DNA of 64,000 bases from an uncultured bacterium (GCA_937996685.1 CALKUP010000006.1:64001-128000); one strand, 5' to 3'; shown: positions 8,970 to 56,961, counted from the first letter of the stretch. Program-made: numbers and translations. The notes: generated by a model from the sequence alone, not told the origin.

Positions 8970-11390
8970 TTACATCCAGAGTTTGGCAATCACGTCCTTG
9001 ATCTTTTGATCGTAAATGACAATGAGTTTTTTGGCAGATTCGACTAGCATACGCTCAACCTTAATCTTCTCTACAATCTGCCCTTGTACTTCGAGGGATG
9101 GGAGAGGTATTTTAAAATTTTTCACACTACCCGCAGCAAGATTGGGCTGTGCAACACCATTTTTAGATTCAAGGATCATATCTGCAAAAAATGACGTCCC
9201 AAAATACACCGCTAGAAAATCTACCATTACTTTTTCTCTGGGACGTACTATGACCAATGATGAAGCGATAGCTCCTTCAGAAAAGTTCTCAACTTTGGCA
9301 TATTTACCTAAAGACCCTCGCAAACATAATAATATATCATCTTTCTGAACCTTACCGCCTCCAAGCAGATCAAATCTGACTCGTGATATGAAATCCATAT
9401 TCTTCATGTCAATTCCATCATCTGTTAAATGGCCCGCATTAATAAATGGAATTCCATTGTCTACCCGGTCAGATTTTGAAGGATAATTTACGCCTCTATC
9501 GCCATTTTCAAAATCACAAATCTCCCCCAACTTCACTTTCTCCCACTCAGGATCGATGTCAATTTTGGGTTTCCAATTTTGGACGATTTGCTTGGCACCG
9601 GCGATGATGCCTGTGTAACCATTCAGCTCCGCTACAATTTGCTCTTGAATTTCGAGAGACGGGAGAGGGATTTGAAATGACTGCAACATTCCAAGCTTGA
9701 TATAAGGCATTGTATTTCCAAGTTTCTGCAACTGCATATTCTCTTTCAGAGAATTATTCAAAACTTGAAAAAGATACTTTACATTTACATTTTTGAAATT
9801 ACTCAAAACATAAGTTCGTTGATATGCGTCAAATTTTCCTTTGTAATATTTCACTGCACCAACATCACCGTTTCCAGCAATAAGTAACGCTTCTGTATCA
9901 AATGAAAATACATCAATAAATGTGTTTTCTTTAGCACAAGTAAAGAATGGGTACTCGCCGTTAGGATTTCCTTCATTTACATCTTTTCTGCCTGTTGTAA
10001 TTTCACAAAGTTCTTTTAACTCCACCATTTGCCATTTGACCTTACTGTAATCAGTAACTACACGATATCTGTCACCTGAAAGGTTATAATCACCGTTTTC
10101 GGCAATTTTTGATTTTTCTACATACATTGCAAGCTTGCTTTCTACTTTTTCACCGGCGTTCCATTTGTTCAAAATATCTAGTGCAGCTGGCAAATCATTT
10201 TTGTTAATTGGCCTCTTGGTTGCACCGAGATCAAGACCATCTTGTTCAATTTTTACGAACAAAATTTCTTGATTTGTTTTTGTTAACTCATTATTAAAAA
10301 GCAAAATACTTGTTTTTACTCCGCTATACGGAGCAAAAACACCTGATGGTAAACTTACAACAGCATATAGACCGTCCTCAATAAGATTTTTTCGAAGTTG
10401 CTTATGAGCCGTACCCGATTGAAAAATAATCCCTTCCGGCACGATAATTCCTGCGCGACCATTTGGGCGCAAGTGATTCATGATGTAATCAACGAATAAC
10501 ACCTCCGAACGGGTAGACTCAATGCTAAATTTTTTGTGGGTTGCTACACCACCTTTCGGTGACATAAACGGCGGATTCGCAAGAATGACATCGAACTTAT
10601 CACCCCATCGATCTTCTTCGCTCAATGAATTATATTGAACAATTTTAGGGTTCTTAAACTGATGTAAATACATATTCACTTGAGCAATACGCACCATGCT
10701 CGGATCAACATCGTATCCCTCAAAATTCTCCATTATTTTACGACGCTGCGATGGTGTTAATGGGGATTCTTTTTTTTTGGGGTCATTTATGCCATCATGC
10801 TGTTCCAAAATATGCTTGTATGAACTCACCAAAAAACCACCTGTTCCACATGCCGGGTCCAGTATCTTATCATCTTTTGTCGGATTAATAACATCCACAA
10901 TAAAATCGATGATATGACGCGGCGTGCGAAACTGCCCAGCATCACCTTGACTCGACATAATCGAAAGCAAATACTCATATGCATTACCAAGCTCTTCTGG
11001 ATGAGAATAATCAAAGAAATCAATCTCTTTCAAGAATAATCCAAGCGTTTCTGGTGAACGATATGGTAAAAATGCTGATTTAAAAATTCCACGGAATAAT
11101 TCTGGGAGTTGTTTCGCCTCGGAAAATTTAAGTAGAGCTTCGGCATATAAATTCATTCGCTCTTGATTCCCAACGCGCGAATCCATGAGCCGCGACCATG
11201 CATATTGCTCAAGCTCACCAATAAAAAAAGAAGGTTCATCTCCTTGTTTAATTGCAGCCTGATCCATATCATCCATGAATTTGTAAATCAAAGCATTGGT
11301 GATTTGCTCGATTTGTGAAGTCGGGTTTGGAACAACACCTACAAGCACTTGCCTTGCAGCGTCTATATGTCTTTTAGTTTCTGAATTCAT
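8970..11390 (-). CDS. hsdMS: Type I restriction-modification methyltransferase fused to the specificity subunit (HsdM-HsdS single polypeptide, two target-recognition domains)
   Basis: N6-adenine methyltransferase motifs DPACGTGGFL (motif I) and NPPF (motif IV). C-terminal 330 aa contain two TRDs, each ending in the conserved HsdS helix LPSLEIQEQIVAELN / LPSLEVQGQIVEKI. Confidence 0.8.
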   Translation of the reverse strand: MNSETKRHIDAARQVLVGVVPNPTSQIEQITNALIYKFMDDMDQAAIKQGDEPSFFIGELEQYAWSRLMDSRVGNQERMNLYAEALLKFSEAKQLPELFRGIFKSAFLPYRSPETLGLFLKEIDFFDYSHPEELGNAYEYLLSIMSSQGDAGQFRTPRHIIDFIVDVINPTKDDKILDPACGTGGFLVSSYKHILEQHDGINDPKKKESPLTPSQRRKIMENFEGYDVDPSMVRIAQVNMYLHQFKNPKIVQYNSLSEEDRWGDKFDVILANPPFMSPKGGVATHKKFSIESTRSEVLFVDYIMNHLRPNGRAGIIVPEGIIFQSGTAHKQLRKNLIEDGLYAVVSLPSGVFAPYSGVKTSILLFNNELTKTNQEILFVKIEQDGLDLGATKRPINKNDLPAALDILNKWNAGEKVESKLAMYVEKSKIAENGDYNLSGDRYRVVTDYSKVKWQMVELKELCEITTGRKDVNEGNPNGEYPFFTCAKENTFIDVFSFDTEALLIAGNGDVGAVKYYKGKFDAYQRTYVLSNFKNVNVKYLFQVLNNSLKENMQLQKLGNTMPYIKLGMLQSFQIPLPSLEIQEQIVAELNGYTGIIAGAKQIVQNWKPKIDIDPEWEKVKLGEICDFENGDRGVNYPSKSDRVDNGIPFINAGHLTDDGIDMKNMDFISRVRFDLLGGGKVQKDDILLCLRGSLGKYAKVENFSEGAIASSLVIVRPREKVMVDFLAVYFGTSFFADMILESKNGVAQPNLAAGSVKNFKIPLPSLEVQGQIVEKIKVERMLVESAKKLIVIYDQKIKDVIAKLWM

Positions 11391-41851: not shown

Positions 41852-41880
41852 AGCATACAATATTTCAGAAAATGCGTCAA
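41852..41880 (-). promoter_or_regulatory. Sigma70-like promoter TTGACG-17-TATGCT for the tRNA-Tyr/tRNA-Thr (and probably rpmG) transcript
   Basis: Minus-strand TTGACG (plus 41875-41880, overlapping the rlmN stop), 17-nt spacer, TATGCT (plus 41852-41857). Confidence 0.45.
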
Positions 41881-42965
41881 CTCGCTTGCTCCATGCGGTT
41901 TTTTAAAGCCTCTTTTGCCTTCTCTGCCTGCATGTTTTTGACAACTAATTGACCGCACGCCGCTTCAATATCCAGTCCTTTTGAGTACCGAATCGTTGTT
42001 GTGATTCCGCCGGCTTCACAAATCCGCGCAAACTCCTCGATGTGTTCATGTGTACTACGTTCGAGATGCTTCCCTGTTGCGTTCCACGGAATTAAATTCA
42101 ATTTCACCGAGTCGTGGATCTTTGCGAACACTTTCACAAGAGCACGCGCCTCAGAATGCATATCGTTAACACCATTCAACATCACATACTCAACCGTAAC
42201 ATGATGTCGTCGGTTGCCGTATGTATCAAGATATCGTTCCATCCAGTCAACAATTTTTGCAATTGTCCATGCACGATGTGATGGCACAATCTGCGACCGG
42301 GTTTCGTCTGTCCCTGCGTGCAATGAAAACGCAATACGCACATGCGGAAATGAGTCGTCTTTCAATAACCGATTCAAGATCACCGGAACCCCAACAGTCG
42401 ACACTGTGATACGCGTCGCGCCAATTCCCAGCTCATCAATCAAGATGCGCACCACTTCTTTCACCACTTCATAATTTGCAAGCGGCTCTCCCATGCCCAT
42501 AAACACGATGTTTGAAATCTCCTCTTCCGGGCGCGCAAATTTCCAAAAACGCACTTGGTCAACAATTTCATCAACACTTAAATTCCGGATCATTCCCATG
42601 GTTCCTGTTGCACAAAATGTACACGCCATTGCACAACCAACTTGCGAACTCACACAAATCGTGCGCTTCCCACGAGCGTTCGGCATGAATACACTTTCAA
42701 TTTTTTGACCGTCCTGTAGCGTCATGAGTGACTTTTGCGTGCCGTCGCGTGGTGAAGTTGCAATTTCAGAGCCAACCAAAGAAAGCCACGGGAACGCACC
42801 TTTTAACTCTTGTCGCAACTCTTTTGAAATCGTCGAAACAACATCCCATGATTCAGCATCGTACCAGGCTGTTGCAATTTGTGTGTATCGATATTCTGGC
42901 TCTTTTCTTTCAACAAGAAACGCGCGAATACGCTCAAGGGTTGAACTCGTATCTACTGTATTCAT
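41877..42965 (-). CDS. rlmN: 23S rRNA (adenine2503-C2)-methyltransferase RlmN (radical SAM)
   Basis: CAMACTFCATG radical-SAM CxxxCxxC, GMGEPLAN, and C-terminal IEAACGQL motifs. Start ATG 42965 (MNTVDTSSTLERIRAF). Confidence 0.85.
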   Translation of the reverse strand: MNTVDTSSTLERIRAFLVERKEPEYRYTQIATAWYDAESWDVVSTISKELRQELKGAFPWLSLVGSEIATSPRDGTQKSLMTLQDGQKIESVFMPNARGKRTICVSSQVGCAMACTFCATGTMGMIRNLSVDEIVDQVRFWKFARPEEEISNIVFMGMGEPLANYEVVKEVVRILIDELGIGATRITVSTVGVPVILNRLLKDDSFPHVRIAFSLHAGTDETRSQIVPSHRAWTIAKIVDWMERYLDTYGNRRHHVTVEYVMLNGVNDMHSEARALVKVFAKIHDSVKLNLIPWNATGKHLERSTHEHIEEFARICEAGGITTTIRYSKGLDIEAACGQLVVKNMQAEKAKEALKNRMEQAS

Positions 42966-43003
42966 GCGTCGATTTGTATCAATATACCGCTGAAAAGTCA
43001 ACG

Positions 43004-45283
43004 TTATTTTTTAATCTTTAGAGTCTTCACAGTTGAAGTGCTCTTTGAAAATTCTTCTTTATCAGCAACACCTGGTTTCCACACCGCTTTTAATTGCACC
43101 TTCTTTGAAGCCTTTAATGTCATTGTTGCCACACCACGATTATTCGTTTTGGCAACTTTTATTTTTACCCATTTTGATCCTTTCTTTTGATAGAAGGTGA
43201 TATTTTTTTTCTTGAGTAAACGAGCCGTTGATTTGTCCTTGACTGTTGCAGTGACTTTTAATTTCGTGCCCTTTTTAACAGACGATTTACTGAGCTTCAT
43301 TGAAACAGAAGCTTTTGCTTTTAGATTATATAAGCCACGAGTATTACCTGAAATCAAACCATCAAACAACAATGCGTTGAAATTTTCATTTTTCAGACCA
43401 GTGTAATACAGTCCAAAACTAACGCCATTATTTGTCGATTTATAAATAACTCCAGCATTCGATAATTTATTCACTCCACCAATATAGACATTTGTCACAC
43501 TTCCTGCATCCTGCAAGCCAATGGATCGAATTTTTGTCACATCAGCAATGCCACTCGTAATTTTTGTCCACGTCGCACCACTGTCAGTAGAGCGATAGAA
43601 ACCACTTGTTGTGTCACCTGCAGCGCCGTACGTATTAAAGTCTGCTGCTGCGGCATATAGAATCGCCGAGTTATTTGGATCAATCGCAAGAGCGGTAATT
43701 TCTTCTGCTGGAGATCCTGTCAACTTACTCCATGAACCACCTGTATATACATAGACACCTGTTTCACTCGTTGCGTTGATGCTGACATTTCCATTTCCTG
43801 CATAGAGTGTTCCGTCTGCCATCGCTGCAACACTTTGCACTGACTCATCACTTGGAAACGACAATGTTGACCAGGTCGCGCCTCCGTCAGTTGATGTGTA
43901 CACACCGCCGCTCATGGCAGCTGTTTGATTTTGATAACTTGCCGCAGCAAAGAGCACATCTGGATTTCCTGGCTTGTGAACAATTTGCAACGCCGCATAA
44001 CTCGAATTCCAACCAGTTGCTGTTGACCAGGTTGCACCACCATCATTCGAATAGATGACACTACTTTGACCACCGACAACAACATGACTTGCATTATCTG
44101 GATCAATCCACACAGTGTATGCGCCTGCTTCATATTGAATTGGGAATGTCCAATCTGGCGACGAAGTCAAAAAGTTTGTTGTCCGCGCAAGGCCTGCGTT
44201 TGTCGCAACCCACACCGTGTTTTTATCAGTCGATTGCGCAATGCCCTTCACTGTCACAGCAGTAATGCCTTCATTTGTATCTGACCATGTCACACCACGA
44301 TCGGTTGATTTTGCAAACGCAGCAAATGAACCACCGTAGATTGTATTCACGTCGTCCGGATCAGCTGTGACATATCCACTCACTCGACTAATTGGTGTTG
44401 TCTGTTGAATCTGTGACCACGTTGCTCCGTTATCATCTGAGTAATCAACACCTAAATAGATGCGACCGTTAGTATCAAAATCAACATGCGTTGCATATGG
44501 AGTTACCGGAAGCTCAGACCAACTTGTTCCACCGTTTGTTGTCATCCACGGACCAACATCAGCAGTACTTGAAATCAGAATCACCTGATTTGCGTCCGCA
44601 GGATTCACGCCCACGGTTGAGAACGTTGTTGTTACAGAACTCGTATCAATGAGAGTCCAACTCGCTCCAAAATCAATGGTCTTATACAATTGCGTCGTCG
44701 TGTTGTTTGTTGTACTCGCATACGCAGTTCCAGTAGTTGAGGTGGGCGCAATACTTTGAACCACTGACCCATCTCCAACCGCTGTTGCCGTTGTAAAAGA
44801 TATTCCACCATTTCGACTCACACTCACCTGACCATCGGTTCGTCCAATGTAGATTGCGTCATCTGCAGCAATTGCAATCGATCCGCCGTATCCAGCCGGA
44901 AAACTGGAAAGCAGTGTCCAATTTGCTCCACGGTCAGTACTTTTTAATAATCCTTCTCCCAGCACAGCATATACATTTCCCGCGCTATCAATTTCAACAC
45001 CGCGCGGTTCACCGTAATCAGTGCCTGCAGGAAGCCCGCGCCAAGTCGCGCCATTGTTCCCAGAAATATAGACACCGTTTGGTGAATAGGTTGTGATATA
45101 GATCGAATCTGAATTTGTATCAACAGCAATATCACGCACCTCACCACCATACAATCCAAGATTGGTTGCAGTTGCACGGGATTGTGAAATTGTTTCCGCA
45201 TAAACAGCTTGCGTACTGATGAACGCAGCCATTGCAAAAAGCGCAAAACTCACTCGTCGTATGAATAGAGATACAGTTTTCAT
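43004..45283 (-). CDS. Secreted BNR/Asp-box repeat beta-propeller protein with a Lys-rich C-terminal tail
   Basis: Signal peptide MKTVSLFIRRVSFALFAMAAFISTQAVYA. At least ten SxDxGxTW repeats (STDRGANW, TTNGGTSW, SDDNGATW, STDRGVTW, SNDGGATW, STDGGATW, STDSGATW). Tail ...KAVWKPGVADKEEFSKSTSTVKTLKIKK. Confidence 0.7.
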   Translation of the reverse strand: MKTVSLFIRRVSFALFAMAAFISTQAVYAETISQSRATATNLGLYGGEVRDIAVDTNSDSIYITTYSPNGVYISGNNGATWRGLPAGTDYGEPRGVEIDSAGNVYAVLGEGLLKSTDRGANWTLLSSFPAGYGGSIAIAADDAIYIGRTDGQVSVSRNGGISFTTATAVGDGSVVQSIAPTSTTGTAYASTTNNTTTQLYKTIDFGASWTLIDTSSVTTTFSTVGVNPADANQVILISSTADVGPWMTTNGGTSWSELPVTPYATHVDFDTNGRIYLGVDYSDDNGATWSQIQQTTPISRVSGYVTADPDDVNTIYGGSFAAFAKSTDRGVTWSDTNEGITAVTVKGIAQSTDKNTVWVATNAGLARTTNFLTSSPDWTFPIQYEAGAYTVWIDPDNASHVVVGGQSSVIYSNDGGATWSTATGWNSSYAALQIVHKPGNPDVLFAAASYQNQTAAMSGGVYTSTDGGATWSTLSFPSDESVQSVAAMADGTLYAGNGNVSINATSETGVYVYTGGSWSKLTGSPAEEITALAIDPNNSAILYAAAADFNTYGAAGDTTSGFYRSTDSGATWTKITSGIADVTKIRSIGLQDAGSVTNVYIGGVNKLSNAGVIYKSTNNGVSFGLYYTGLKNENFNALLFDGLISGNTRGLYNLKAKASVSMKLSKSSVKKGTKLKVTATVKDKSTARLLKKKNITFYQKKGSKWVKIKVAKTNNRGVATMTLKASKKVQLKAVWKPGVADKEEFSKSTSTVKTLKIKK

Positions 45284-46558: not shown

Positions 46559-46639
46559 CGCGTACACACACCTCTTGACATGCTATGTGCATTATACTAT
46601 TTTATACATAGTATAAATAACAAGGTATTTTTGAATCAT

Positions 46640-46978
46640 ATGCAATTTTCTAAAGGACTTTTAGTTGGCGCTGCGGAATTGATTGTTCTGCATGTGCTCA
46701 AAACAAAAAAAGAAAGTTACGGCTACGAACTCATTCGTGCGATCTCCCAGGAAAGCGAAGGAATCTTTGACTTTGAAGAAGGAACACTCTATCCCCTGTT
46801 GTACCGACTTGAACAAAAAGGATTGATCGAAAGTGAAACAAAAAAGGCACCGAGTGGCAAAAAACGTCGCTACTATAAACTCACAACAACAGGCACCGCC
46901 TCATTGAAAGAGCGGAAAAAAGAAATGACGTTTTTCTTCAAAGGCCTTGAACACGTCTTGCAATCACAATCTGCATAA
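46640..46978 (+). CDS. PadR-family transcriptional regulator
   Basis: GYELIRAISQES...GTLYPLLYRLEQKGLIESE...KRRYYKLTTTG winged-helix PadR signature. Start ATG 46640. Confidence 0.75.
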   Translation: MQFSKGLLVGAAELIVLHVLKTKKESYGYELIRAISQESEGIFDFEEGTLYPLLYRLEQKGLIESETKKAPSGKKRRYYKLTTTGTASLKERKKEMTFFFKGLEHVLQSQSA

Positions 46979-48727
46979 TTGCGTATGTCGTCTCCTACTC
47001 AAAAATTTTTTGCAGAGTTAGAAGAACTCTCATTTGTTGATGAAGCATACAAACAGCGTTTCATTGAAGAACTCCATGACCACATCGAAGACTCGATACA
47101 CGATGCGGATGTACGCGGCATTGACGACCTCAACGCCGAACAAACTGCGATCCAAAGACTTGGAGCACCAAAAAAATTACAAAAGAATTTTAATCGTATG
47201 ATGAAGCCACAACGACTACAAACACTCCTCTTATGTATTCTTCAGTTCGTTGGAACAGTGAGCGTCACATATGCCTCCCTGATTCCATTTGGTGGGATTG
47301 CTGACAGCGTTGTCAATGTCGCACGATATTTGACTGGCAGGCCGTATGTGCTTGATTACCCAAATCTTTCTTCAAGCATCACACTCTTTGTAATAGGCCT
47401 CGGGGTACTCGGTATTCTACAAATTATTATTTTCCAAACAGCGTTGTTTTCTCTACTCAGTCAAGACATGAAGCGTAGTGTGTTTTGGTTTATGTATATT
47501 TTTATGGCTGGCGCTCCTGGTGTACTTGTCATTTTTAGCTCACTCATCACACCCCTCCTTGGAATCCCTTTTGAATTTTGGACAGATCAAATTCGTGGTC
47601 TTGCGCCACAATACGCCATTACATTCATTTGTGCCCTAATGTTTCTCACAATCTGTTTTACACTTGCAGCTATTGGCGTCATCGCGCGCCTAAATAATTC
47701 GTCATTCTTTTTACAACTTGTTGGACATCTTCCGGATTCAATCAACCGCCCAATCACACAACTCTTCACACGCTATCGCGTTTTTTCACATCTGAATACA
47801 GTCAATATTTTTGGCGTACTCAGCATCTTGTACCTCTTGTTTTGGCTCATGGTATCACTTTTTCCAGACCTACAAGCATTCTTACAATCAGGGAATCAAT
47901 ACATAATGAATGAGACGGACCCACGGATTTGGTGGCTGATTTTTGTCATGCCAATCATGATTATTTCTGCAATACAAACCCTCACCATCTCTTCATTGTT
48001 TACCACCCTTTCACCAATTCATGGCATCTGGGCAGCCGGCTTCATTTATAGCGGACTTTTCATGCTCAGTATTGCGCTCATTATCATTAGTCTTCGAAAA
48101 CAAAAAATCAAAACAATGCAGTCATTTTGGGTGGCAAGCGTTCTTGCGCTCACATGTACCATGGTTCTGACAAATCGCTTTCCGAACAACTCATGGGACA
48201 ACCCAAACAATCAGACCCAGTGGGAGCGCCCAGCAAAAAACCTCTCAGTGAAAATAGACAAAAAAGTGTTTGGACCATTTTACATGCTCTATAATAGCAC
48301 GAGCTTGTTTACTCCTATTCCAGCAAGTCAAATACTTGTTGATACAACAGGTGATTTTTTTGTCATTCAAACAGCTCTTGGATCAGAGTTTATGTTGGAA
48401 TTTACTGATGCAAATAGACTCAAAATGGTACACAGACACACAGAAAACACAATGCGGAATGTTGAAAAAAATCTTGCAACAGCAATTCCAAAAGAACTCA
48501 AAGATCGTATTTATTGTGGGGAAAAAACAATAGACACAACTGGGGATATATTTTCAGATGGTACGCCAGCGTACTTTTGTACATCATTACAAATTGATAA
48601 TACACTCGTTGCAAGCGGCGGCTCAATTGGACTGTTGGACGTCGCGATTAGTCCTGATAACTCCACCGCACTGATTGTTACGACAGAAAATGGAAAGCCT
48701 CAAGTCTACCGCGTTAGTTTGAAATAG
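46979..48727 (+). CDS. DUF1700-like polytopic membrane protein partnered with PadR
   Basis: ATG overlaps the PadR stop. Cytoplasmic N-domain FFAELEELSFVDEAYKQRFIEELHDHIEDSI followed by about 8 TM and a C-terminal extracytoplasmic domain. Confidence 0.45.
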   Translation: MRMSSPTQKFFAELEELSFVDEAYKQRFIEELHDHIEDSIHDADVRGIDDLNAEQTAIQRLGAPKKLQKNFNRMMKPQRLQTLLLCILQFVGTVSVTYASLIPFGGIADSVVNVARYLTGRPYVLDYPNLSSSITLFVIGLGVLGILQIIIFQTALFSLLSQDMKRSVFWFMYIFMAGAPGVLVIFSSLITPLLGIPFEFWTDQIRGLAPQYAITFICALMFLTICFTLAAIGVIARLNNSSFFLQLVGHLPDSINRPITQLFTRYRVFSHLNTVNIFGVLSILYLLFWLMVSLFPDLQAFLQSGNQYIMNETDPRIWWLIFVMPIMIISAIQTLTISSLFTTLSPIHGIWAAGFIYSGLFMLSIALIIISLRKQKIKTMQSFWVASVLALTCTMVLTNRFPNNSWDNPNNQTQWERPAKNLSVKIDKKVFGPFYMLYNSTSLFTPIPASQILVDTTGDFFVIQTALGSEFMLEFTDANRLKMVHRHTENTMRNVEKNLATAIPKELKDRIYCGEKTIDTTGDIFSDGTPAYFCTSLQIDNTLVASGGSIGLLDVAISPDNSTALIVTTENGKPQVYRVSLK

Positions 48728-48743
48728 CAACACCCAAATCACA

Positions 48744-49418
48744 TTATATTTTCTTTGGATCTAGTAAATCTTTATTTGGTATTTTGCGCAAATAATACAC
48801 GACCGTTGGATACAGAATGCACACTAACGAAAGAGCAAAAACAGCATTTCCAAAATGCCGCGTATTACACCACCATAATATCAACAGCAATACAGATAAC
48901 GGCCCAAAAATAATCCAGTGTTTTCGTATATACGCCGCCCAACGATAGACCGGCTTATTGAACAAGTTCGATGTTGAAAGAGAAACAAAGACAGGCACCA
49001 TGATACTTGTTGTGTCAAATAGCTCGAATGAATCAAATGTGATTAATATATACAGAAAAATAGGGATAATCATATTTCTTTGGAGCGTTACGGTATATGC
49101 ATCCTCGTCAACACCAGTGACTTCTGGAAAGAAGGAACATGTGATTACACACAAACAATACAAAGCTAGGTAATATGCCGACCAATGAACATCTAAAAAT
49201 GTAGTCACCAGTCCAACTAACAATGCCCCACGAACAATCACCTCCTTGAGATACGGCCATGTCATCAATGGACGCAACTCACTTATTGTGTGATTTTGCG
49301 CATAAAAATAATACACCCTCGTCAAAGAATCAGCGAGCAAGAAAAATCCTAAAACAATACACATCCATCGAAATACGACAGCAGTGGCGTCCAAAATAGA
49401 GAGAGCGCTATCAATCAT
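48744..49418 (-). CDS. Polytopic membrane protein (about 6 TM), last of five tandem small membrane proteins in a ~32% GC segment
   Basis: 224 aa, hydrophobic helices throughout. Confidence 0.4.
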   Translation of the reverse strand: MIDSALSILDATAVVFRWMCIVLGFFLLADSLTRVYYFYAQNHTISELRPLMTWPYLKEVIVRGALLVGLVTTFLDVHWSAYYLALYCLCVITCSFFPEVTGVDEDAYTVTLQRNMIIPIFLYILITFDSFELFDTTSIMVPVFVSLSTSNLFNKPVYRWAAYIRKHWIIFGPLSVLLLILWWCNTRHFGNAVFALSLVCILYPTVVYYLRKIPNKDLLDPKKI

Positions 49419-49731
49419 ATATTTGTTGAATTAATCTTTTTTGAATAAAACGATTTTTGATTATCCAAAACGCGCCGTGTAGTAGGATCACGAAAAAAAA
49501 TAGCGGTAATCCATACACACCAAATAATGCCACATCGGCTCCACCAAGAGCATATTCATCCGCAATAAGGCCTGCGTGAAACAAATCCACCGCAAGAATT
49601 GCAATAAACAACAACACACATGACTGAGTGTATTTCCATACAGTTGTTGTGTTAGTTGCGTAGACTTTTTGAAGCAAGACTGCTGCGAACGCGATAATAA
49701 GAATAAGGAGTGTATTCATAAATATGACCAT
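49411..49731 (-). CDS. Small membrane protein (3 TM)
   Basis: 106 aa, MVIFMNTLLILIIAFAAVLL... Overlaps its neighbour by 8 nt. Confidence 0.4.
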   Translation of the reverse strand: MVIFMNTLLILIIAFAAVLLQKVYATNTTTVWKYTQSCVLLFIAILAVDLFHAGLIADEYALGGADVALFGVYGLPLFFFVILLHGAFWIIKNRFIQKRLIQQIYD

Positions 49732-49748
49732 TCGTTAACAATATGTTA

Positions 49749-50201
49749 TCACGAAATGTTTTTTTGAAAGAGTAGATATTTCAAAATATAAAATAGAACA
49801 AGAATCATTCCAAGATATAAAATATCTTTGATATCGAATGGATACAGCGCATAAGTGACTCCAAAGATGAAAAATGCGGAGGTTGTTTCAAAAAAATGAG
49901 GATCTTTTTTAAAAAACGTGTACTGAAGCCATGCTGCGTATCCAATAACACCTACAAATATCCAAATAATATTTGTAACATACATAAACACGGCTAACAG
50001 CGCAAAAACTAATGCATGTACACGCACTGCAGATTTTTTAAGACCCTTAATATTTACAGGTATAAAAAACCACAGACTCAAAAAACCAGTTACAACAGAC
50101 AATGCTGTTAAAAGGGTTGGGTTATAAAAATAAGCAACCCCTAAAACACCGCCAAACAAACCTCCTAAAAATACATTTTCTATTCTCTTTTGAATTTTCA
50201 T
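49749..50201 (-). CDS. Small membrane protein (4 TM)
   Basis: 150 aa, GGLFGGVLGVAYFY ... hydrophobic. Confidence 0.4.
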   Translation of the reverse strand: MKIQKRIENVFLGGLFGGVLGVAYFYNPTLLTALSVVTGFLSLWFFIPVNIKGLKKSAVRVHALVFALLAVFMYVTNIIWIFVGVIGYAAWLQYTFFKKDPHFFETTSAFFIFGVTYALYPFDIKDILYLGMILVLFYILKYLLFQKNIS

Positions 50202-50203
50202 AA

Positions 50204-50470
50204 CTACCCTTTTGTATTTTTAGCGTATAAGTACCAGGCACATACAAAGCAGCTTATTGCTGAAAATATTTTAACCGTTGTATATACATCCCAATTATCG
50301 GCCCCGATTTCTACTGCGACTCGAAACAAAAAGAATAATCCCCACAAAATAACCGCTGAAATCTTCTTATCGAAAATAATTGCCCCGAGAATCAACGCGA
50401 AAAAAATGTAAGAGACAAGGCTATAAAAAATCATATTATCAACAATTATATCCCCACTTAGGCAGAGCAA
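50204..50470 (-). CDS. Small membrane protein (2-3 TM)
   Basis: 88 aa. 3-nt gap to the next gene. Confidence 0.4.
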   Translation of the reverse strand: MLCLSGDIIVDNMIFYSLVSYIFFALILGAIIFDKKISAVILWGLFFLFRVAVEIGADNWDVYTTVKIFSAISCFVCAWYLYAKNTKG

Positions 50471-50479
50471 TCGGTGTTT

Positions 50480-50674
50480 TTATGATTGATACACTTCCTT
50501 AGTAACTGTCAGTATCAGCACTGACATTATAGATATGACAATTTTTTCAATCAACCACTCTCCTCTCACATCAATAAATTCAAAGAGAAAAAAGGTACAA
50601 AGCACACTTACAATCATTAGCGCGATAAATAATCCAGCACAATAGAGAATGCGATATAATGTATTTTTTTTCAT
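50480..50674 (-). CDS. Small membrane protein (2 TM)
   Basis: 64 aa, MKKNTLYRILYCAGLFIALMIVSVLCTFFLF... Confidence 0.35.
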   Translation of the reverse strand: MKKNTLYRILYCAGLFIALMIVSVLCTFFLFEFIDVRGEWLIEKIVISIMSVLILTVTKEVYQS

Positions 50675-50698
50675 ACGAAGTTTAAAATCATCGCGCTG

Positions 50699-51745
50699 CT
50701 ATGCACGTAAACGAACAATACCTTTTATTGCATTTGTTAACTGCCTCACCATTGCCCCTTTTAATGACGGGGGTATAAGCCTTGAAACAACTGGACCAAA
50801 AACCACACCCCCAGCACATGACCAAGCAGCATCTTGCAATCTTTGATTCCAGTACCAATCCTGATTATGGACAGCTGCTCTAACGCCTGCGATTCCTAAA
50901 TCTTGAATTGCCGAACTTGCACACATCGCAGTCGCCCAGCCAACGTAACCAGCAACAACCGCATACCAATACGGATCAGCATTTACAGGATACACCACGC
51001 CTTCCACATTGTGAATGACATGTTGCGTCAGAGTTTGACCATCTGTTGTAAACCAAGTTTGCAACACCATGCCGTTGGCATCTTTTGCCCATGGAACATC
51101 AACCGTTGCAATCACATCTCCGTTCGCATCTAACACCACTGCACCGCCTTCTTCTGTGAGTTCAATATGTCCACCATTTGGAACAGTCACGGTATATGGA
51201 TATTCCGCTGGAGCTCCCGCGTTATCAATAATCGTTAGCATGCGCACTCCGCCATCTTCCGTTGCTTGAACAGCGCTTGCAGAACCGTTACTGGCTGGAT
51301 ACGCAACTGTTCCATCCGCAACAACTGCAGCGTCACTTGCAGCGGCAGCATTTGGCAAAGAGATTTCAATCGCTGGCGCATCTCCACCAGAAAGCGTCAC
51401 ACCATCTTCTGGGTTGCGTGGAATTTCAACAGTCGTTGCCGCCACTTCCCCTTCCGCGCCGTCTGCTGCAACCGTTGCAACAATCGCTGAGTCCGCATCT
51501 GATGTTGTTGCAACATCGCTAGACTCCTCTGCAATACTCGGTATTGCCGACAATGATTCTGCAACTTCATTTGCGCTCACAGTCCGATTATTATCCGTTT
51601 GTGGGTCCGCAGACACGTCCACAGCCGGGGCTGCATCAACAACGCTTGCTGGCGCTTCTTGCGCATATACCGCTCCTGGAAAAACCACCAAGGCACTGAA
51701 GAATGCTGTTGTTGCGAATGACAACAACGTATGTGTGTATTTCAT
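50699..51745 (-). CDS. Secreted protein with an Ala/Asp-rich linker and a Cys-containing C-terminal globular domain. Candidate toxin or effector.
   Basis: Signal peptide MKYTHTLLSFATTAFFSALVVFPGAVYAQE (ATG 51745). C-terminus ...YWYAVVAGYVGWATAMCASSAIQDLGIAGV...AAWSCAGGVVFGP. Followed by five small membrane-protein genes. Confidence 0.5.
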   Translation of the reverse strand: MKYTHTLLSFATTAFFSALVVFPGAVYAQEAPASVVDAAPAVDVSADPQTDNNRTVSANEVAESLSAIPSIAEESSDVATTSDADSAIVATVAADGAEGEVAATTVEIPRNPEDGVTLSGGDAPAIEISLPNAAAASDAAVVADGTVAYPASNGSASAVQATEDGGVRMLTIIDNAGAPAEYPYTVTVPNGGHIELTEEGGAVVLDANGDVIATVDVPWAKDANGMVLQTWFTTDGQTLTQHVIHNVEGVVYPVNADPYWYAVVAGYVGWATAMCASSAIQDLGIAGVRAAVHNQDWYWNQRLQDAAWSCAGGVVFGPVVSRLIPPSLKGAMVRQLTNAIKGIVRLRA

Positions 51746-51860
51746 ATTGTGAAATAAATAATTATACCTATTGTAATTATAAAAAACCTGCGTGAATTCT
51801 GTATATGGCAGATTTGCGCCGTCTGGGGACAAGTCGTTTTTGGTGCTAATATTAGATATC

Positions 51861-51891
51861 CAAAAAAACAAAAACGCCTGTTTTGACGTTT
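51861..51891 (-). terminator. Rho-independent terminator of the O-methyltransferase operon
   Basis: Minus-strand AAACGTC-AAAACA-GGCGTTT hairpin followed by TTGTTTTTTTGG. Confidence 0.5.
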
Positions 51892-53939: not shown

Positions 53940-55571
53940 TTATTGTATTTCTTGCAACGAATGCTTTGTCATAACATACCGTCGATGAGACAACTCCTCA
54001 ACTGCTGAACGATGTGTGACAATCACAACCGTTTTATTCTTCAGTGCTTGTTGCAAATATTTTACCACCACTTGTTCAGTTGCTTCATCAAGGTGCGATG
54101 TTGGTTCATCAAGCAACACAATATCACGATCAAGTAAAACACCACGCGCAATATTTAAACGCTGTTTTTGCCCAGCAGACATTTTTACACCCTTCTCACC
54201 AACAATCGTTTCAAAACCATCAGTCAGTTGGCGATACCATTCACCTAATCCAATATCAGTCAACGTTTTTTCTAGCACCACTTCAGGAATATTCACACCT
54301 AACGTCAAATTGTCTCTGACTGACAAATTAAATAACTCAGTTTCCTGAGAAATATAGGTGATATGTTGTCGAAAAAAGTCTGGGTCAATAGACTTAAATT
54401 CTATACCATCAATATACCGCTCACCCTGACTTGGTTGTACATTATTCATTAATATATTTAATACAGTTGTCTTGCCTTGACCAGAAGCGCCAGTCAAGGA
54501 GATGATTTTGCCTTTTTGCAAGGTGAGTGCTGGGATTGAAATAACCGCCGTTGCATCCTGTAGATGAAGCTGAACATCTTTCAGACTCATCTCTTGCCAC
54601 CGCAATGGTAATGTACCATTTTTAACTGGTAAAACTTGCATTAAGACTTCATCAAGATTTTGAATATAACCATTCATGACCATTAAATCTTTGACATATT
54701 CTGACAAGCGCTCAATATTCCCACGAATAATCGCATACGCAGCAATAAACAAAATAAGCACAGAAGGACTCAAAACGCCTCTACTAATTTGTAATAACAA
54801 AAACCCAATCGTCGATAAAAATGCGAACCCAAATAATGAATGTAAAAATGCCCAGCGATTCGCATGAAATTTTTGCAGTTGCGAAATTTGTTGGTTATGA
54901 GTCAGTGTTTTATCAGCTATTTTTGCATAAGCAAAATCAACAACATTTAACCGCTGGACAGTTATGATGTTTGCCATAAAATCAGCATATCGCTCAAAAA
55001 GAGATGCTCGGCGAGCGTTTAATTCCTGTGTGATCGGAATCATTTTTCGGGACAGCAACACGCTTGCGATAATAAAAATAGACAAGGTTAAAAAATTAAC
55101 ACACGCAACAAGAAATGATTCACGTGCGGTAAAATAAAAAAATAAAATCAGATTTGAAGTACTCAGAGCGACTGTCCAAAAAATGGAAAAAAGAATTGGC
55201 GTCATTCCCTCTGATACATTATTAATCAGTGACAACGTATAACCAGAATGATATTTTTTTAATTCAGTGGGTGGAAGTTCAACTAATTTTCGAAAATAGA
55301 CCAATCGAATATGATTCGCAAATTGCTGAGCCATTGCTTCACCGTAATTACGAATAAACCACTGAAGAATCAGTGACAGCACATACGCACAAAGCACAGC
55401 TATCGCCAATTGAATAAAACGATGTGTATCTAAATTTGTTTTCGTAAACTCAGCTAATAAAACGGGGATCGCGAACAACGCAGCGCCATCTAAAATACCC
55501 ATGATAAAAATCACGATAAATCGAGCACGATAGATCGATAAATTTTTAAAAATAAAAACTAAAGCGTTCAT
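53940..55571 (-). CDS. ABC exporter, fused transmembrane and ATP-binding domains
   Basis: Six N-terminal TM helices. Walker A LTGASGQGKTT, signature MSAGQKQRLNIARG, Walker B IVLLDEPTSHLD. Confidence 0.8.
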   Translation of the reverse strand: MNALVFIFKNLSIYRARFIVIFIMGILDGAALFAIPVLLAEFTKTNLDTHRFIQLAIAVLCAYVLSLILQWFIRNYGEAMAQQFANHIRLVYFRKLVELPPTELKKYHSGYTLSLINNVSEGMTPILFSIFWTVALSTSNLILFFYFTARESFLVACVNFLTLSIFIIASVLLSRKMIPITQELNARRASLFERYADFMANIITVQRLNVVDFAYAKIADKTLTHNQQISQLQKFHANRWAFLHSLFGFAFLSTIGFLLLQISRGVLSPSVLILFIAAYAIIRGNIERLSEYVKDLMVMNGYIQNLDEVLMQVLPVKNGTLPLRWQEMSLKDVQLHLQDATAVISIPALTLQKGKIISLTGASGQGKTTVLNILMNNVQPSQGERYIDGIEFKSIDPDFFRQHITYISQETELFNLSVRDNLTLGVNIPEVVLEKTLTDIGLGEWYRQLTDGFETIVGEKGVKMSAGQKQRLNIARGVLLDRDIVLLDEPTSHLDEATEQVVVKYLQQALKNKTVVIVTHRSAVEELSHRRYVMTKHSLQEIQ

Positions 55572-55718
55572 TGATTTTTATACTATATCTAAAGAGACAT
55601 CAATCAACCCCTCTTTTTGGGTGCATTTCCTCATGCTCAATTAGGTTTATCCCCACAAAAATAGACGGTATGATATGATGTGATATACTGTACCTATAAT
55701 CATCTAATTATACAACAT

Positions 55719-56273
55719 ATGAAAAAATCATTGCTTGGTTTACTTGTTGTCTCTCTTGTCCTTACAGGTGCAAGTTGTGGCAGCGACGATAAAACAACAA
55801 CAAAAACTGCTGCGAACACAGCCGCTGCTGTTTCAACAGTAAAAGTAAATGAAGCTGCAAAAGCTGGCGACATTTCACACACAGTCACATTGGCTGAAAA
55901 AATGGATACTATTCCAGCGTCAAAGACCGTTGAAGACTTTAAGTCAATTGCAAAAGACAAAAAAGCTGCTGACGGTTTCACATGGGTGCATTTGACTGGA
56001 AAAGTCACAAACAACTCATCTGAATCAGAAAATGTAAGTTCAAACTCTTTGACTGTTGTTGACGACAGTGGAAAAGAATATGACCTTGCAACTGACGTGA
56101 CAATTTACGTTCCAGATGACAAGTTCCCAACATACATCGACATTCAACCAACACAAACAGTTGAATGGGAAGCGTATTACCTCGTTCCAACAACTGCGAA
56201 AGGCTTGAAATTGAAAGTAAACGACTTGCAAATCTTGTCTGACAACGAAGCGCTCGTTGACCTCGGTTTATAA
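55719..56273 (+). CDS. Lipoprotein, DUF4352-like
   Basis: Signal peptide plus lipobox MKKSLLGLLVVSLVLTGASC. Start ATG 55719 (track ORF from 55680). Confidence 0.55.
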   Translation: MKKSLLGLLVVSLVLTGASCGSDDKTTTKTAANTAAAVSTVKVNEAAKAGDISHTVTLAEKMDTIPASKTVEDFKSIAKDKKAADGFTWVHLTGKVTNNSSESENVSSNSLTVVDDSGKEYDLATDVTIYVPDDKFPTYIDIQPTQTVEWEAYYLVPTTAKGLKLKVNDLQILSDNEALVDLGL

Positions 56274-56295
56274 TCAATACAATCAAATACGAAAA

Positions 56296-56324
56296 ATACT
56301 CCGTTTCTACGGGGTATTTTTTTA
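56296..56324 (+). terminator. Rho-independent terminator
   Basis: ATACTCCG-TTTCTA-CGGGGTAT hairpin followed by T7. Confidence 0.65.
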
Positions 56325-56347
56325 TAGCGAGATTGCTGCAAATGGTA

Positions 56348-56374
56348 TTGATGTACACGCATTTGTGGTATACT
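56348..56374 (+). promoter_or_regulatory. Promoter with extended -10 (TGgTATACT) for the second lipoprotein gene, near-leaderless
   Basis: TTGATG at 56348-56353, 15-nt spacer, TG at 56366-56367, TATACT at 56369-56374. The ATG at 56389 is about 8 nt after the predicted TSS. Confidence 0.4.
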
Positions 56375-56388
56375 ACGTGCATTAACAT

Positions 56389-56961
56389 ATGTATTTTATG
56401 ACACATCGTTTCACCGCTTTTTTACTTGTTGCGACACTCCTGCTTACAGGACAAAGCTGCCTCAACCGCAACACCAATACAAATACGAACGTTGCTCCAC
56501 CAGAAAAAATTGTCATCAAGGTTGGTGAAAAAACAACCATCGATTCACTTGAACACCAAGTCACAACAGCTGAGCGATTAGATGTGATTCCAGCCAGTAG
56601 CACAATCAAGCGCTTTAAAAATATCGCCGCTGACAAAAAAGCCCCTGAAGGCTTTACCTATATTCACTTGAGAGGCAACATCAAAAATACCGGAGAAACA
56701 GCCCAAACAATTGACAGTAATAGCTTCCAAATCATCGACCGGATTGGCGAAACATATAAAATCACCACAGACGTAACACTCTACATCGAAGACACACTGT
56801 TCCCGACCTATATTGAAGTGCCTGCAGGAAAAACAACACCGTGGGAAGGATACTTCCTTGTTCCGAATGTCGGCAAAGATCTCGAATTACAACTCACCGA
56901 TCTCCAATCACCTCCAGTAAAAACAGCCTTTGTTAACCTTGGTATCGCAAACAAAGAATAA
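56389..56961 (+). CDS. Lipoprotein, DUF4352-like. Tandem paralogue of 55719..56273.
   Basis: Lipobox LLLTGQSC. About 45% identity to the upstream paralogue across the C-terminal 110 aa (DVIPASSTIKRFKNIAADKKAPEGFTYIHL... versus DTIPASKTVEDFKSIAKDKKAADGFTWVHL...). Confidence 0.55.
   Translation: MYFMTHRFTAFLLVATLLLTGQSCLNRNTNTNTNVAPPEKIVIKVGEKTTIDSLEHQVTTAERLDVIPASSTIKRFKNIAADKKAPEGFTYIHLRGNIKNTGETAQTIDSNSFQIIDRIGETYKITTDVTLYIEDTLFPTYIEVPAGKTTPWEGYFLVPNVGKDLELQLTDLQSPPVKTAFVNLGIANKE

Follow-up and report, generated by a model that had tools for sequence, protein, structure and literature searches.

A putative Sec-dependent polymorphic toxin gene and its stack of small membrane genes in an uncultured bacterium

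A block of six genes at positions 48744-51745 of a 64,000-nucleotide stretch of DNA from an uncultured bacterium (GCA_937996685.1 CALKUP010000006.1:64001-128000; the whole stretch is called the window here) resembles a toxin-immunity locus, in which a gene for a putative secreted toxin precursor is followed by a stack of five genes for small membrane proteins. Calling of open reading frames (ORFs) on the window gave six consecutive and tightly packed minus-strand ORFs, with spacings that range from an 8-nucleotide (nt) overlap up to 24 nt (Table 1). The five small genes, encoding proteins of 64, 88, 150, 106 and 224 amino acids (aa), lie where a first-pass annotation made from the sequence had placed them, and each product contains two to six hydrophobic 19-residue segments in a Kyte-Doolittle scan. 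The same annotation described the secreted protein as 347 aa long; its coordinates stand, and the length is corrected to 348 aa counted from the ATG. Taken mechanically, this ORF reaches a TTG at 51871, and the family homologues begin at the ATG at 51745.

Table 1. Features of the locus, with the comparison of the small genes to their homologues in related metagenomic contigs (L087, L088)
Feature	Coordinates	Strand	Basis or remark	aa identity and dN/dS (nonsynonymous to synonymous rate ratio)
Putative secreted polymorphic-toxin precursor, 348 aa	50699..51745	-	Signal peptide, beta-rich N-domain, YPVNADP, C-terminal module	
Predicted Sec-type signal peptide, residues 1-28 (ending …PGAVYA before QE)	51662..51745	-	Read from sequence; hydrophobic N-termini followed by small residues align across the family	
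Conserved N-domain, residues ~50-258	50972..51598	-	Beta-rich; nearly invariant alignment columns; predicted local distance difference test (pLDDT) >90	
YPVNADP junction motif, residues 252-258	50972..50992	-	P253, A256, D257 and P258 invariant; recombination breakpoint	
Variable C-terminal module "type A", residues 259-348, putative toxin	50702..50971	-	Type-A alignment; AlphaFold2; database search	
64-aa two-helix hairpin membrane protein, positional candidate for cognate immunity	50480..50674	-	Starts 24 nt past the toxin stop	L087: 53%; 0.26
88-aa membrane protein, two predicted helices, putative orphan immunity gene	50204..50470	-	True start possibly ATG 50434 (76 aa)	L087: 72%; 0.44
150-aa polytopic membrane protein, putative orphan immunity gene	49749..50201	-	Single homologue in database	L087/L088: 77%; 0.29
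106-aa membrane protein, helices linked by a "GLIADE" loop, putative orphan immunity gene against C-termini of the DUF2599 type	49411..49731	-	Profile match	
224-aa membrane protein, ~6 predicted helices, possibly a further immunity gene	48744..49418	-	N-terminal 54 aa conserved in L087	L087 (N-terminal 54 aa only): 85%; 0.47
Promoter-like site TATACA-18-TATAAT	51776..51805	-	Consensus scan; ~30 nt 5' of the toxin ATG; top-scoring site of the region	
Terminator-like hairpin and T-run	51872..51891	-	Closes the upstream O-methyltransferase gene (Pfam-identified); upstream boundary of the operon	

None of the six proteins scored above cut-off in Pfam or NCBIfam, in agreement with the first-pass remark that no motif could be assigned to them. 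The precursor gave no match in either database at E values up to 1, and no Pfam or NCBIfam model covers its N-domain. The AlphaFold2 model of the 348-aa precursor has a mean pLDDT of 86 and a predicted template modelling score of 0.76. It contains a beta-rich domain at residues ~50-262, where pLDDT is mostly >90, and only residues ~20-45 are of low confidence; the region formerly regarded as a long Ala/Asp-rich linker is mostly a folded domain in this model. A Foldseek search of the precursor model against the PDB returned nothing at E values up to 0.001, and neither did a comparison of the family sequence profile with solved structures at the same threshold. Among predicted viral structures, Foldseek matched the N-domain to A0A8S5MN12, a 1379-aa Siphoviridae protein, and to A0A5Q2W7D1 (713 aa), both at E ~1e-6 and both uncharacterised phage proteins. 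On these models, the N-domain may share its fold with phage structural or receptor-binding proteins.

Past the junction motif lies the C-terminal module that we call type A. It is modelled as three long helices (residues 265-293, 297-316 and 326-347) plus a short one, with two conserved cysteines, and is common to the window protein, P0002, P0004-P0011, L002 and L011 (L and P numbers are our own labels). Between the window protein and P0002 the C-terminus is 48% identical and the N-domain 81%, so the type-A C-terminus evolves faster than the domain that precedes it. When the C-terminus alone was searched against 1.84 billion representatives, only family members were found, apart from three repeat proteins whose match, through a common DWYW word, is spurious; the type-A module is thus a feature of this family alone.

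Searching 5.8 billion protein clusters with the precursor recovered 70 homologues. They come from Kerfeldbacteria, Saccharimonadales and other bacteria of the Candidate Phyla Radiation (CPR), as well as from Streptomyces, Amycolatopsis and Leifsonia, and most of them align solely to residues ~48-260 of the query. In the family alignment four positions are invariant within YPV[TVN]ADP (Table 1) and the sequence past the motif is unalignable. Scanning a single genome for each species, we confirmed 170 loci in Patescibacteria and in many Actinomycetota, among them Microbacteriaceae, Micrococcaceae, Streptomyces and Rothia. The locus comparisons described here used the best 80 of these 170 loci plus further related loci (80+ in total), which together hold 93 family genes. 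All 93 break at the ADP motif in the same manner, and the part after ADP measures 45-130 aa in all but a few.

The C-termini of 88 of these genes fall into 22 unrelated clusters. Many are rich in Gly, Ala and Trp and are flanked by two cysteines, a strongly cationic type (KWWDKTKKWAKKAGK…) is antimicrobial-peptide-like, some contain a clear hydrophobic helix (L026, L035), and some match DUF2599 or DUF6973 of Pfam. The C-terminus of a Nocardiopsis member (L046) matches DUF4258 with 34.4 bits (cut-off 25) and, weakly, Colicin_E5; DUF4258 is treated in the literature as a ribonuclease toxin of the BECR/RelE-ParE type. Two members depart from the usual proportions: a 963-aa Microbacteriaceae protein (L023 7146-10037) carries the motif at residue 432, its C-terminus of 525 aa being without Pfam match, and a 781-aa Pseudonocardia protein (L044 6429-8774) has an N-terminal extension of ~700 aa before the motif. 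That this might be a phage family was considered and rejected, as viral contigs yielded only one family locus. No description of the family was found in the literature on polymorphic toxins of Patescibacteria, CPR bacteria or Saccharibacteria or in that on DUF2599 and DUF6973, of which our coverage is incomplete; the family is apparently undescribed so far.

Exchange of the C-terminus can be followed between L081 and L085, which occupy one and the same chromosomal position (DnaB … YbaB-RecR) in organisms related to each other. Sequences with 91.6% and 89.2% nucleotide identity flank a non-homologous segment that begins at the ADP codons. In L081 this segment contains a C-terminus of the window's type A and a 56-aa membrane gene, in L085 an unrelated C-terminus (WYGWD…NRGGC…YYGGYCR), and a 53-aa two-helix gene follows the swapped segment in both. 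Identity between the two proteins is 87% in the N-part, and their C-termini are unrelated.

The gene that comes next varies together with the C-terminus. In 66 of the 93 family genes a predicted membrane ORF begins at most a few dozen bases from the stop codon, and the C-terminus type is shared in 32 of the 33 locus pairs that have similar downstream ORFs, a count that treats related loci as independent when the pairs are not phylogenetically so. Type-A C-termini mostly precede proteins of 56-69 aa with one or two predicted helices (most have two), WYGWD-type C-termini mostly precede hairpins of 52-53 aa, and two-helix proteins that contain a G[ILV]xADE loop come after DUF2599-type C-termini. 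A soluble protein of ~94 aa occupies this position after the 48-aa "IWLAPWV.RC" C-terminus, and the DUF4258-type C-terminus of L046 also has a soluble partner. Tandem paralogues occur at several loci (L002, L011, L039, L060), where two or three complete family genes are each paired with a small membrane gene. In L013 a four-helix protein of 176 aa directly follows a DUF6973-type C-terminus, and its 171-aa counterpart in L002 and L011 stands behind a type-A C-terminus and its hairpin. Orphan modules, composed of a few N-domain residues, the motif, a C-terminus and a small membrane gene, occur at L041 9259-9582, L060 4658-4981, L039 and P0079. The window contains no such orphan fragment of a C-terminus, only the extra membrane genes. 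A conserved N-domain, a hypervariable tail, exchange of cassettes, a co-varying next gene and orphan modules are defining features of polymorphic toxin systems.

Shorter traces of the same elements were also seen. A 50-aa ORF at L001 ~9000-9250 corresponds to only the final part of a WYGWD-type C-terminus (…DWVYNRGGCIKF…), and the KPED..F..RF hairpin survives at L089 2221-2334 as a truncated copy of 37 aa; both remnants are located beside an intact cassette and suggest repeated cassette displacement. In the Paenarthrobacter locus L031 (8910-9431), a 173-aa four-helix protein 3' of a DUF2599-type C-terminus consists of two consecutive copies of a two-helix G[ILV]x[AI]D[DE] unit. Duplication within the gene is therefore a way for immunity candidates to become longer, and this may bear on the larger 150- and 224-aa proteins of the window.

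The small membrane proteins of the window themselves have few relatives. As single sequences, the five gave no match at E <1 against all ORFs of the 80+ related loci, and the 150-aa protein has one homologue in the 5.8 billion clusters (P0073, 76% identity). The contigs of this homologue, L087 and L088, derive from two independent metagenomes, samples ERZ27284499 and JGI 3300016710, and carry the same small genes in another order: the end of an ORF (…WWYRC*), the 150-aa homologue, a new 134-aa membrane gene (X134), the homologues of the 88- and 64-aa genes, and the start of the 224-aa homologue. The 150-aa homologue begins 7 nt after the …WWYRC ORF, and the 106-aa gene is missing from L087. 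Nucleotide identity between L087 and the window is 73-91% over the matching segments, and four of the five small ORFs are intact there. A lack of conservation of these ORFs, or of purifying selection on them, would by the first-pass annotation have counted against the toxin-immunity reading; the reading survives, with dN/dS between 0.26 and 0.47 for four of the five genes. Conservation in L087, the dN/dS values and the reordering together indicate that the small ORFs are real genes and that the array is modular. The ORF end upstream in L087 was matched to no C-terminus type when compared with those of the family. In translation, the first ~50 nt of this contig (ENA ERZ27284499 k141_109190, positions 1-50) read as repeated FPVTKFPSHEVFPSHD, and they look like an M13-type primer for sequencing (TTCCCAGTCACGA) copied in tandem. 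An artefact of assembly or adaptors is the probable cause, for which reason the ORF end found there is read with caution.

Two of the small proteins can be tentatively connected to particular C-termini. At other type-A loci a membrane protein of 56-69 aa holds the position of the 64-aa gene, whose product has hydrophobic segments at residues 4-22 and 39-57. The 106-aa protein ranked first among 493 window ORFs (E 5.5e-4) in a search with a profile of 13 proteins encoded 3' of DUF2599-type C-termini, a 14.7-bit match to a profile that was built after the motif had been spotted by eye. The same profile matches X134 of L087 at E 6e-5, and the top five pairwise matches of the 106-aa protein among the family-adjacent ORFs, none of them significant, are all DUF2599-adjacent. 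This weak but specific evidence suggests that the 106-aa protein and X134 are immunity-type proteins against DUF2599 C-termini.

The first-pass annotation had compared the locus to a toxin with stacked immunity genes, and this architecture finds support in the conserved N-domain and variable tail, the cassette swap, the co-variation, the orphan modules and the ribonuclease-type C-terminus observed across the family. In our view the locus probably represents a Sec-dependent polymorphic toxin-immunity system, one that belongs to a family common to CPR bacteria and Actinomycetota. According to this reading, the 348-aa precursor would be exported via Sec, as its visible signal peptide suggests, and the ADP motif would be the junction at which C-terminal "warheads" are swapped by recombination along with the next gene, as occurs in the relatives. 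The N-domain itself might help in targeting or translocation or act as a pro-domain. The type-A warhead, a helical and amphipathic stretch of 90 aa that has two conserved cysteines, would most likely act on the envelope or membrane of a competitor; this target is proposed because the partner genes encode small membrane hairpins and no enzyme signature was detected. The 64-aa two-helix protein would be the likely cognate immunity protein, neutralising the C-terminus in the membrane of the producer. The other four membrane proteins would most likely represent a stock of immunity proteins against other warheads of the family, the 106-aa protein being tentatively assigned to the DUF2599 type.

Several observations weigh against this reading. 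For every family member, toxicity and protection alike are deduced from sequence. The isolated window C-terminus showed no Pfam match, no DUF2599, DUF6973 or DUF4258 and no recognised toxin domain, and among the 1.84 billion representatives the type-A C-terminus was fused to no other delivery domain. In the AlphaFold2 model the ADP motif forms a beta strand within the beta structure and is not an exposed linker, which makes release of the warhead by cleavage, for instance at the Asp-Pro bond, uncertain. A profile of the hairpins adjacent to type-A C-termini did not recover the 64-aa protein from the window (E 7.5; a larger set gave E 22); no homology is therefore claimed, and the assignment is based on position, size and topology. 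By pairwise and profile searches of the family-adjacent ORFs, the 88-, 150- and 224-aa proteins were tied to no C-terminus type, and a profile made from the L003, L006 and L008 partners gave no significant match to the 88-aa protein. At 224 aa, the last protein of the array exceeds the usual size of an immunity hairpin, and in the large-database search it matched only itself, with no full-length homologue. To these must be added the shared ancestry of the compared locus pairs and the manner in which the DUF2599-adjacent profile was built, both described above.

The lack of significant similarity between the 88-, 150- and 224-aa proteins and any family-adjacent protein, together with the ~6 predicted helices of the 224-aa protein, so unlike a typical hairpin, would be consistent with a smaller system made of the toxin and the 64-aa gene only, the other four being unrelated co-transcribed small transporters or stress proteins. 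We regard this as unlikely, though worth keeping in mind. The same genes travel together, reordered, in L087 and L088, next to a different upstream ORF end; L087 lacks the 106-aa gene but has X134, which also matches the DUF2599-adjacent profile; and extra immunity-type genes follow the cognate one elsewhere, such as that of the 171-aa protein in L002 and L011, whose 176-aa counterpart in L013 comes directly after the DUF6973-type C-terminus.

Polymorphic recognition or signalling must be considered as well, with the variable C-terminus acting as a secreted or surface ligand and the small membrane proteins as its receptors or partners. Co-variation of C-terminus and partner and the exchange of cassettes would fit ligand-receptor pairs equally well, and the window C-terminus has neither an enzyme nor a toxin signature. 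However, one C-terminus type of the family is a DUF4258/colicin-E5-like RNase domain with a soluble partner, another is the strongly cationic, antimicrobial-peptide-like type, and arrays of partners without ligands, as in the window and in L002/L011, are better explained by stockpiled immunity. Such a role therefore appears improbable to us.

There is a similarly slim chance that the precursor is a surface or envelope protein whose tail serves for anchoring or interaction, the small genes being either neighbours with no connection to it or genes for components of a membrane complex. The clear hydrophobic helix in the C-termini of L026 and L035 would agree with an anchor, the distant fold match of the N-domain to phage proteins could mean a binding domain, and the genes around the operon in the window are ordinary housekeeping genes. 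Yet the highest Kyte-Doolittle mean within the window C-terminus is only 1.19, compared with at least 1.6 for the small membrane proteins, so this C-terminus has no stretch of transmembrane-grade hydrophobicity and is not a membrane anchor. C-termini of the DUF2599, DUF6973 and DUF4258 types are globular and not anchors, and a fixed membrane complex is difficult to reconcile with an order and content of small genes that differ between the window and L087 and are not conserved across the family loci. Finally, although AT-rich sequence gives long ORFs by chance and most of the small ORFs lack database homologues, the notion that they are chance ORFs and not genes is refuted, given that four of the five are intact in L087 with the dN/dS values cited and conserved loop motifs, and that all are tightly packed on one strand with two to six hydrophobic helices each.

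In its logic the locus agrees with polymorphic toxin systems. These systems, said to have been defined by Zhang et al. in 2012 and by Jamet and Nassif in 2015 (the latter cited in PMC6031116), include CdiA/CdiI, marked by VENN, and Rhs/WapA, marked by the DPxGL motif, as well as MafB and the LXG/Esx toxins. The family resembles them in its conserved N-region and hypervariable C-terminus divided by a short invariant motif, in an immunity-position gene that lies directly downstream and co-varies with the C-terminus (in the window only position and topology agree), in its orphan C-terminus/immunity cassettes and recombination at the motif, and in having at least one C-terminus type that is a known RNase toxin domain, found in L046 and not in the window. 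It differs from them in that the N-domain is small (~210 aa), beta-rich and absent from Pfam and NCBIfam, export apparently needs the Sec signal peptide alone, and the junction is YPV[TVN]ADP. With 45-130 aa its warheads are of unusually small size, the majority of their partners are tiny membrane proteins, and its range comprises CPR/Patescibacteria and Actinomycetota. The elements of the known delivery modules (Rhs/YD, filamentous haemagglutinin, CdiA, LXG, WXG and MafB) are lacking; in particular, neither the YD-repeat shell nor the DPxGL motif of Rhs/WapA is present in the 348-aa window protein, in searches of Pfam and NCBIfam at E up to 1.

Arrays of orphan cdiI and rhsI genes and the acquired interbacterial defence clusters of Bacteroidales offer a parallel for the stack of small genes. 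As in these, several different small putative immunity genes stand behind one toxin-immunity pair in the window, and gene content and order vary among close relatives, as between the window and L087. Unlike them, the window has no orphan C-terminal fragments, its Pfam-annotated neighbours adjoining the operon include no recombinase or integrase, and just one of the four extra genes (that of 106 aa) is linked to a toxin type.

Regarding mode of action, comparison can be made with the alpha-helical ionophore toxins of contact-dependent growth inhibition (CDI), in which a VENN-demarcated CdiA C-terminus forms a five-helix membrane-spanning bundle (PMC11630599) and the immunity proteins are very hydrophobic two-helix hairpins of 72-100 aa (Halvorsen et al. 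2024, PMC11630599). The window shares with them a small helical C-terminal module, a two-helix hairpin below 100 aa in the 64-aa protein, and the rapid divergence of toxin and immunity within a type, here reflected in the 48% identity of the C-terminus against 81% for the N-domain. In contrast, the window C-terminus has three long helices and a short one, is amphipathic, and its hydropathy lies below transmembrane level; the protein has no VENN motif, no CdiA-type N-terminus and no CdiB, and its delivery would not be contact-dependent via an outer membrane. Searches of Pfam and of the database with the C-terminus disclosed no sequence relationship to the CDI ionophores. By analogy, these helical ionophores may serve as the nearest working model, whereas homology to them is not supported.

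A second comparison concerns the Sec-dependent class II bacteriocins and PAMP of the actinobacterium Propionibacterium jensenii, a protease-activated 64-aa peptide from the C-terminus of a 198-aa pro-protein (PMC5756557). They have in common with the window locus the Sec signal peptide, small membrane immunity proteins close by and, as proposed here, a small C-terminal active part of a larger precursor. They differ from it by the large conserved folded N-domain, the family-wide junction motif and the modular, exchanged C-termini seen here. Class II pre-peptides are shorter than ~100 aa with the leader directly before the peptide, and the window protein has 348 aa with a domain of ~210 aa in between.

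CPR/Patescibacteria have tiny genomes and a mostly unknown cell-surface biology. If the toxin-immunity interpretation is true, these bacteria invest in interbacterial warfare or defence by means of widespread and diversifying Sec-exported toxins and immunity arrays. It would also bring ~20 new small warhead types with matching membrane immunity proteins, including DUF2599 and DUF6973, to which no function has been assigned, and the invariant YPV[TVN]ADP junction would provide a simple handle for mining more warheads. The family is essentially confined to CPR/Patescibacteria and Actinomycetota, a distribution that hints at a wider scheme, which we put forward as a doubtful extension only. The YPVxADP family might be a cross-phylum toxin-immunity arsenal, in which Patescibacteria such as the Saccharibacteria epibionts are in conflict with actinobacterial hosts. 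By the same uncertain scheme, warheads and immunity genes might pass between parasite and host, and genome-reduced CPR cells might conceivably keep multi-gene immunity arrays because they are attached to toxin-producing hosts. In the actinobacterial isolate OV450 (L015) the C-terminus is 65-67% identical to versions in metagenome-assembled genomes (MAGs) of Saccharimonadales, and the N-domain is 51-53% identical to CPR versions, as close as these are to each other. Speculatively, these identities give hints of cross-phylum exchange between epibiont and host lineages, with MAG contamination possible in the metagenome-derived members. Since Actinomycetota include known hosts of Saccharibacteria, defined gene pairs would allow a direct test of host-epibiont conflict. 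Recent work has demonstrated antagonism between these two groups via another secretion route (PMC13622651).

Concerning the boundaries and base composition of the locus, the first-pass annotation had reported a promoter region and a terminator upstream of the secreted-protein gene. Sites of both types are present before the ATG, but their counts do not exceed those in shuffled sequence, so the promoter-like site is only suggestive. The very low GC content (~32%) attributed to the whole block was found in the five small genes (31-38.5% each, 35.5% pooled) and not in the secreted-protein gene, which with 49.4% lies above the window mean of 43.7%. GC content at third codon positions (GC3) is 0.25-0.39 in the small genes and overlaps the 0.31-0.48 of the neighbouring genes. 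The dip is therefore mostly a matter of amino acid composition (Ile, Phe, Leu, Lys and Tyr) and does not clearly indicate foreign origin. The compositional argument for a foreign low-GC island is not supported, and the idea was rejected on the grounds that GC3 of the small genes matches that of their neighbours.

At its other end the block is convergent with a PadR/DUF1700-like pair, as had been noted, and 16 nt separate its end from these genes. The PadR-family regulator (46580-46978, plus strand; 85.5 bits) overlaps by one base the gene of a 582-aa protein (46979-48727, plus strand), in which a HAAS domain scores below threshold (23 bits, cut-off 27) and ~7 hydrophobic segments precede a non-hydrophobic C-terminal region of ~190 aa. 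The adjacency of this pair is probably incidental, because it was not found beside family members at other loci. Elsewhere in the window, GC content dips sharply to 34% at 43000-43500, where the minus-strand ORFs 41877-43001 and 43004-45283 meet. Two adjacent paralogous DUF4352-domain proteins of 197 and 190 aa are encoded at 55680-56961 (plus strand) in a low-GC stretch (34-37%), just past the gene of an ABC transporter (53940-55571) in which membrane and ATPase domains are fused.

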